Source: Escherichia phage PhiR12_1
DNA: 54,435 nucleotides
Sequence record: PV340549
Reading direction: 5' to 3' (one strand)
Position 1 is the first letter of the stretch, and every line of letters starts with the position of its first letter. Shown here in pieces: positions 713 through 1,479 of the stretch. A model generated the notes under the pieces. It was given only the letters and a program-made list of their open reading frames with translations, did no database searches and was not told the DNA's origin. The position numbers and the translations under genes were made by a program.

Positions 713-1479
713 ATGGCTCCTGCGTTAATACCTTCATATAACAAGGACTTGAACATCACGCCATTTGGCGAAAAACGTCTTATTGAGTCATTCTATTTTT
801 TCACTGCCGAGGCTGGCTTACTGAGGGCTGATGAGTACATTGTCAGTTCTGGTGAGTTTCAGTACTACTTGGATGTGTATCAACTGGGATGTTCCACCGA
901 CGACTTTTTTTAGACTATGGCAGTGACCTTCTTGATTCGAAGGTTCCAATGCAGGATCTGGTCAATACCCTCTTAGGTCTTGATATGGTAGACGATAACA
1001 AAACGATAAGAATAGGTCGTATACAGTTCAACGACTTTAATTTTATCGAAGAGAACGGTCAGATGATGACCGGAAAGCAAGTGAAAAGCGCTGTTATCGC
1101 ACAGGATTTCCAATCAGCAGGTTTGGCGCGTGAGATCTATAAAATGCTTGCGCGAAAGCATGAGTTTCTCATCTGCGATAACATTCAAAGTATTGCCGGT
1201 GGTGCTCTTTGGGCCAGTAGCATCATTCGAATTGCCGAGGTACGGATCTACAATTCACGCACGAAGAAATTTATGGACATACTTGGTCCAGGTGCGCGTG
1301 GTGTTTCAGGTACTTTGCCATGGAGTGCGAATGATCTGTCTGTAGATGAGATTGTTCGCTGGGGTCGTGCGTATGATGATGAAAACTGTTGTCGTCACAT
1401 TGTACATGTTATCTGTAAGGACCGACTCATTGACGAGCAATTTCATGATTATGTTTCGATAGGTGGCGCGACAGAATAA
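713..1479 (+). pseudogene. hypothetical protein gene split by frame change at a T7 tract (713-913 in frame 2, 889-1479 in frame 1)
   Basis: Two overlapping ORFs; a one-base gain in the T run 905-911 (or -1 slippage) would fuse ...STDDFF to LDYGSDLL... giving about 255 aa. No family recognised. Confidence 0.5.

Follow-up and report, generated by a model that had tools for sequence, protein, structure and literature searches.

The window analysed here -- the whole 54,435-nucleotide stretch of Escherichia phage PhiR12_1 (PV340549) -- is a complete lambdoid prophage inserted in ssrA. Its first 16 nucleotides, GCGGGAGTTGAACCCG, are repeated at 54398-54413, where 0.04 matches would be expected by chance. 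At this end, between the distal att repeat and a convergent integrase gene, lies a cassette of two cargo genes, the second of which is broken. The relevant features are the following:

1-16, no strand assigned: distal att repeat, a copy of the 3' end of ssrA, at the prophage end beside the cargo cassette
360-701, plus strand: cargo gene 1, intact, 113 aa, PHROG 2594, the constant partner of gene 2
713-913, plus strand: 5' fragment of cargo gene 2, an ORF in frame 2 of 66 codons and TAG
905-911, plus strand: T7 homopolymer, site of a 1-bp deletion (T8 in the intact allele)
910-1479, plus strand: 3' remainder of cargo gene 2 (frame 1), with codons 67-255 and the stop of the intact gene
1485-1513, no strand assigned: bidirectional intrinsic terminator, stem ACCCGGC/GCCGGGT, with flanking A run and T run
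1521-2699, minus strand: prophage tyrosine integrase, an ORF convergent with the cassette
54387-54435, minus strand: genuine 3' end of the tmRNA gene ssrA, cut by the end of the window (Rfam RF00023, 53.4 bits, E 2.8e-20)

The left 16-nucleotide copy departs from ssrA beyond the repeat. ARAGORN called no tRNA or tmRNA in the whole window, since ssrA is truncated at its edge. The terminator, which sits between the stop codons of gene 2 and of the integrase, was predicted on the minus strand, while on the plus strand its T run (1508-1513) was read directly. In relatives, the integrase is annotated either as an integrase or as an Arm DNA-binding domain protein, and Pfam Phage_integrase is found in related contigs.

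The break in gene 2 lies at positions 905-911, where the window has TTTTTTT. The ORF from 713 to 913 runs through this tract and ends there, its 3' terminal codons being GAC TTT TTT TAG, after 66 amino acids; the ORF from 889 to 1479 (frame 1, 196 aa) passes through the same run of T. A sequence-only reading of this DNA had pointed to the overlap of the two ORFs at the T7 tract and had proposed that one extra T would fuse them into a protein of about 255 aa, reading ...GCSTDDFF-LDYGSDLL...; its coordinates and arithmetic are correct, and the predicted sequence is exactly that found in 10 of 10 related complete E. coli genomes. With one T added at the run the DNA becomes GAC TTT TTT TTA GAC TAT, and the resulting 255-aa protein reads ...GCSTDDFFLDYGSDLL... 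across the junction; in the T8 allele, TTT TTT TTA encodes Phe65-Phe66-Leu67. The ATG at 889 is simply the first in-frame ATG downstream of a stop, and is no evidence for a genuine start.

The relatives of this locus speak for a single gene. Using megablast, window positions 340-1520 (1,181 bases) were compared with 5,426 complete E. coli genomes, giving 10 loci at 99.2-99.9% identity, each of them 1,182 bases long, one more than the query. In place of the T7 of the window all ten have T8, and in all ten a single CDS of 768 nucleotides (255 aa) is annotated. The nearest genome, NCTC9112, differs from the window in this region by one T and by nothing else in 1,181 bases, and the deletion is taken to be recent because of this. 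PHROG 3307 matches the repaired protein in a single stretch (residues 1-236 against profile positions 1-240 of 241, E 1.4e-59). All 29 full-length homologues, which come from Enterobacter, Yersinia, Pantoea, Mixta and other genera and are 46-79% identical and 237-256 aa long, are single proteins continuous across the break site, with residues that are invariant among them on either side of it (C60 on one, G70 on the other). An exhaustive profile search of 1.84 billion representative proteins gave 56 clusters only, most of them matched in one stretch, and nearly all of the stronger matches were proteins of about 230-260 aa aligned end to end. (One Logan contig carries a 407-aa protein, P0036, in which the first ~142 residues of gene 2 are joined to a ClpB-like C-terminus; this chimera is probably a misassembly or a rearrangement junction.) The sequence-only reading had allowed that homologues might prove to be two genuinely separate genes, and had suggested looking at homologous loci; these hold single genes, with T8 and one CDS in every one of the ten complete genomes. 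These alignments show that window 713-1479 is one gene split into two halves, which is more than a chance juxtaposition, and that T8 is the ancestral state.

The same T7 is present in four further GenBank records, those of Escherichia phages PhiR12_2, PhiR12_2_star, PhiR12_4 and PhiR12_5, in which the broken gene is annotated as two hypothetical proteins. The parts of these four records that were fetched show no difference from the window; against window positions 1-25000, identity is 99.2% for PhiR12_4 and 100.0% for the other three. No paper that describes the PhiR12 phages turned up in literature searches on their names and accessions. The exact 66-aa fragment (P0032) has been recorded from NCBI, JGI, ENA and Logan assemblies; at least 24 contigs carry it, their sources being ENA metagenome assemblies, Logan and an NCBI genome. 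T7 was present in 10 of the 10 fetched P0032 contigs, 7 of which are 100% identical to the window over the compared region.

A single-base difference in homopolymer length is the classic type of sequencing error, and the four PhiR12 records probably come from one laboratory and one sequencing platform, so that the true sequence might be T8 and the break a miscall, as the sequence-only reading had also envisaged. We consider this extremely improbable. The identical T7 allele (100% over 1,181 bases) is found in independent metagenome and Logan assemblies and in an NCBI genome, and its recurrence in many independent assemblies therefore argues against an assembly error. Systematic undercalling of homopolymers was ruled out by an audit of all runs of at least 6 bases in the whole window against NCTC9112: 41 of the 43 matched runs, including an A8, are equal in length, and three late-gene blocks, ~24 kb in all, align to that genome without a gap. 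The only other homopolymer that differs in length from NCTC9112 is at window 18934-18940, A7 against A6, in GGACAAAAAAAGCCC. The two prophages also differ in the position of an insertion sequence: the window has an IS21-family ISEc12 copy (istA/istB) at 48137-50728, while in NCTC9112 the same ISEc12 lies within a tail assembly gene whose counterpart in the window is whole (~42106-42114).

As to the product, searches with Pfam and with PADLOC-DB 2.0, both at E up to 1, gave no family match and no defence family, respectively, for either cassette protein; an NCBIfam scan of both proteins gave nothing meaningful, and PDB sequences, searched with a profile, yielded no more than MAP-kinase matches at chance level (E 0.23). 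The AlphaFold model of the intact 255-aa protein (pLDDT 77, pTM 0.76) has a GNAT alpha/beta fold, with which Foldseek agrees weakly for gene 2, and distant matches of the family profile (E 1e-5 to 1e-4) bear Pfam Acetyltransf_1, which falls inside the aligned region in P0130, P0135 and P0138. Before helix alpha-3, the residues Q134-S-A-G137-L-A139 fit the GNAT acyl-CoA pyrophosphate-binding motif Q/R-x-x-G-x-G/A; most homologues have R-G-A-G-L-A here, G137 and L138 being invariant in A1, and the homologue from SSU5 (33% identical) departs from the motif with D-S-A-R-I-G. The intact gene 2 is thus predicted to encode a divergent GNAT-fold, acyl-CoA N-acyltransferase-like protein of 255 aa.

By this model, the 66-aa 5' fragment contains the N-terminal beta extension, and its stop falls at the start of helix alpha-1; the fragment therefore lacks the whole core, while the part of gene 2 at 910-1479 contains the GNAT-like core with the Q134-S-A-G-L-A139 motif. 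In other T7 contigs the gene callers pick ATG 949, the Met80 codon of the intact protein, as the start of a 176-aa C-terminal product (P0077, called on 12 contigs). An SD-like GAAGG lies 5 nucleotides upstream of this ATG (window 939-951), so this C-terminal fragment might be made; by the model, it would be without beta-1, alpha-1 and alpha-2. Given the truncation, the T7 allele is most likely null or near-null.

Other tract lengths and other T7 lineages exist in public assemblies. T7 occurs on three SNP haplotypes:

hapA: the window, contigs L028-30 and L034-36; T7, with NCTC9112 as its T8 twin
hapB: contigs L031 and L033; T7
hapC: contigs L032 and L037; T7

The upstream flanks of the T7 haplotypes differ, with a ypjA-like autotransporter, csiD, an EcoRII system and a second integrase among them. 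A diverged allele, L040 (83% DNA identity), has a T7 of its own, with TTT TTT TGG AGC in place of TTT TTT TTG GAG. A T6 allele (L039) gives a product reading ...DDFFRLWQ, and a T9 allele (L038, GCA_900449145.1) one reading ...DDFFFRLWQ. The neighbouring integrase of L038, at 2311-3216, is also split, into ORFs of 203 and at least 150 aa, which suggests frameshift errors in that assembly; its T9 may be a sequencing error. By number, the intact forms prevail: three exact intact sequences are found on at least 1000, 352 and 272 contigs (at least 1,600 in all), against tens for T7. The hapA T7 allele is the same in the four phage records and in at least 7 contigs obtained from different samples, and one hapC contig is present in 18 samples. 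The gene is truncated in other ways as well, to 147 aa (P0079) and 210 aa (P0080), and in a related allele (P0037/P0038).

By this distribution the tract is a mutational hot spot at which OFF alleles arose several times and persisted, with T8 as the norm. Conversion of short gene segments could mimic part of the apparent recurrence, but it is simpler to assume several independent slippage events. Two SNPs (958 and 1104) are confined to T7/T6 lineages; both are synonymous in the repaired frame, so there seems to be no sign so far of decay following inactivation, though two sites are too few to weigh. T8 is kept in two alleles with near-saturated synonymous sites, which could hint that the tract is being retained; a rough estimate from codon usage puts chance retention at ~0.08, which is not significant.

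Besides a recent inactivating indel, the sequence-only reading had offered a slippage-controlled on/off switch. The T tract would then be a reversible contingency (phase-variation) switch, slippage toggling the gene between ON (T8) and OFF (T7, T9 and T6) at a selectable rate, and a lysogen population would always hold cells with and without the GNAT-like product. Some of what such a switch would leave behind is indeed seen: four tract lengths in public assemblies, T7 on at least three haplotypes and again in a diverged allele, most of the independent disruptions falling in a tract that makes up 8 of 768 bases, T8 retained across near-saturated synonymous divergence, and only synonymous SNPs private to the OFF lineages. 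The likeness to the poly-G/C or poly-A/T contingency loci of Haemophilus, Neisseria, Campylobacter and Bordetella extends to an accessory gene with an in-frame homopolymer close to its 5' end and to ON/OFF length polymorphism. Here, however, the tract is short, and in E. coli with working mismatch repair a run of 8 has a much lower mutation rate than the classical contingency tracts; no more than a few percent of the loci are OFF (tens of contigs, with at least 1,600 intact), all ten complete genomes are ON, and the OFF state is stably inherited, the hapA and hapC contigs being unchanged across samples. Nor is the tract maintained across the gene family: it is kept only in E. coli-type alleles, L040 included, while at its position the Enterobacter homologues have GAT TTT TTC CAG (T6), those of Yersinia TTC TAT and those of Mixta TTT TAT. 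The truncations elsewhere in the gene suit general loss better than a dedicated switch, and the T9 case is weakened by the split integrase of its assembly. Nothing relevant came from the literature when it was searched for phase variation by homopolymers in prophages of E. coli, or for GNAT proteins in morons or defence. The variety of lengths and the recurrent T7 thus stand, but with an OFF state that is a stable minority and a tract that is not conserved we regard a reversible switch as unlikely.

A -1 slip had also been named as a way of fusing the two ORFs, and this version of the switch fails its defining tests. Programmed recoding would let the T7 allele yield the full-length protein through -1 ribosomal slippage at UUU UUU UAG, or through stuttering of RNA polymerase, with the two ORFs setting the level of the product. 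A -1 slip in the P site at UUU (908-910), before the TAG, would give exactly the wild-type DFF-LDYG, the junction of the full-length product reading ...DDFFLDYGSDLLDSK; slippery runs beside stop codons are reportedly shifty, and a hairpin of 6-7 bp can be drawn at 925-945. As in programmed -1 frameshifting at dnaX (A AAA AAG) or in HIV-1 (U UUU UUA) and in shifty stops, a run of U is followed by a stop and a -1 slip restores the protein; unlike them, the heptamer here is out of frame, there is neither a structure nor an SD at the right spacing, and the homologues are in frame. The zero-frame heptamer is C UUU UUU rather than X XXY YYZ, which leaves possible only a P-site slip before the stop. 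The hairpin begins 12-14 nucleotides past the run, beyond the usual spacing of 5-9, and folding of the 86 nucleotides that start with the run is no more stable than that of shuffled sequences (z = -0.39); the hairpin was rejected as a frameshift stimulator on both counts. A run of 7 is also shorter than the runs that give efficient transcriptional slippage in E. coli, and the two-ORF layout is unconserved, the gene being in frame in the 10 complete genomes, in at least 1,600 intact contigs and in the homologues of other genera. With the T run absent in other genera and no stimulatory RNA structure, programmed recoding is therefore very unlikely, though a low-level P-site slip at UUU UUU UAG is plausible and would restore some wild-type protein.

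The cassette to which gene 2 belongs behaves, as far as its distribution tells, as a moron. The same pair of genes (112-113 aa and 238-256 aa, ~11 nucleotides apart) is found elsewhere in differing phage contexts: Enterobacter prophages have it on the opposite strand, with the Q antiterminator on one side and the lysis genes on the other; in phages of Yersinia and Mixta/Pantoea it lies within the tail module, with the tail tube and tape-measure genes as its neighbours; and in the phage-plasmid SSU5 it follows the lysis genes, with ORFs that overlap by 16 nucleotides and a gene 1 that is 34% identical. (The Enterobacter prophages L016-L018 also encode, at 1169-1659, ~2.5 kb from the cassette and beyond the lysis genes, a protein assigned by Pfam to the Acb2/Tad1-hairpin family, an anti-defence sponge family.) With phage morons in general the cassette shares its form of a self-contained, dispensable two-gene unit with a terminator, present at att-int, Q-lysis and tail-module positions and in SSU5-like phage-plasmids, and there is no difference in kind. 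Both genes are under purifying selection: between intact gene 2 and the L040 allele dN is 0.048 while synonymous change is near-saturated. Gene 1 is the more conserved of the two (mean column identity 76% against 69%).

Pairs of a GNAT protein with a small partner call to mind the tRNA-acetylating GNAT toxins and their RHH antitoxins (TacAT, AtaRT, KacAT, ItaRT). Unlike the antitoxins of those systems, gene 1 carries no RHH/DUF1778 domain: it has no Pfam match at E up to 1, in a search that covered DUF1778, and its model, a beta sheet with a C-terminal helix, matches GNAT-like rather than RHH proteins. On these models the cassette is best described as a two-component GNAT-type module outside the TacAT/AtaRT family, and the two GNAT-like proteins may form a hetero-oligomer. 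The gene 1 product has a very basic N-terminus, and its model resembles part of the GNAT fold. RefSeq gives this protein a length of 113 aa or, as WP_001467558.1, 81 aa, depending on the genome (L005-L010 versus L001, L003 and L004), with no differences seen in the coding sequence, which looks like inconsistent start calling, not mutation. A 45-aa gene 1 beside an intact gene 2 in L023, considered as a counter to the toxin-antitoxin idea, proved to be an alternative gene call on identical DNA, and so carries no weight for or against that idea.

The explanation that we find probable is a single-base deletion in a mutation-prone homopolymer, real, recent and recurrent, that inactivates a GNAT-like prophage cargo gene; of the two alternatives first proposed for the break, the inactivating indel is the one well supported, by the prevalence of T8, the one-T difference from NCTC9112 and the presence of T7 in independent assemblies. 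One T was lost from T8, turning TTT TTT TTA into TTT TTT TAG and breaking one gene, probably through replication slippage in what is the gene's longest homopolymer. Translation then halts after residue 66, ahead of helix alpha-1 of the GNAT core. In its one-base change in the longest homopolymer of an accessory gene, its common intact orthologues and its independent recurrence, the case is like other frameshift pseudogenes in mononucleotide runs, and nothing essential differs; what is unusual is the frequency of tract changes (T6, T7 and T9, on several haplotypes) and the uncharacterised family. The product of the cassette is dispensable for phage growth, because the PhiR12 phages with T7 are on deposit as phage genomes whose records give E. 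coli C or MG1655 as the host. Our guess as to its role is an accessory acyltransferase module acting on a target in the host or in a competing phage.

The frameshift itself, a textbook homopolymer indel in an accessory prophage gene, matters little, except that the "hypothetical proteins" annotated in PhiR12 and in many contigs are halves of one gene, which should be marked as a pseudogene. A bolder reading, to which we also give little credence, makes T8 a true contingency tract for a GNAT-fold module that hops between permissive sites of unrelated enterobacterial phages and has a costly, toxin-like or phage-exclusion function, with T7 poised to revert or leaky by -1 slippage; if this were true, lysogen populations would hedge between protection and cost. 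Under the favoured reading of a recurrent inactivating deletion, the interest lies in the family of gene 2, which is rare (56 representative clusters) and conserved, always paired with a small partner, and found at moron sites in phages of several kinds. That the gene has been inactivated repeatedly at a single tract suggests a costly product, and the cassette is therefore a reasonable candidate for a toxin-like or phage-exclusion function, for the functional testing of which the natural T7 and T8 alleles provide isogenic material.
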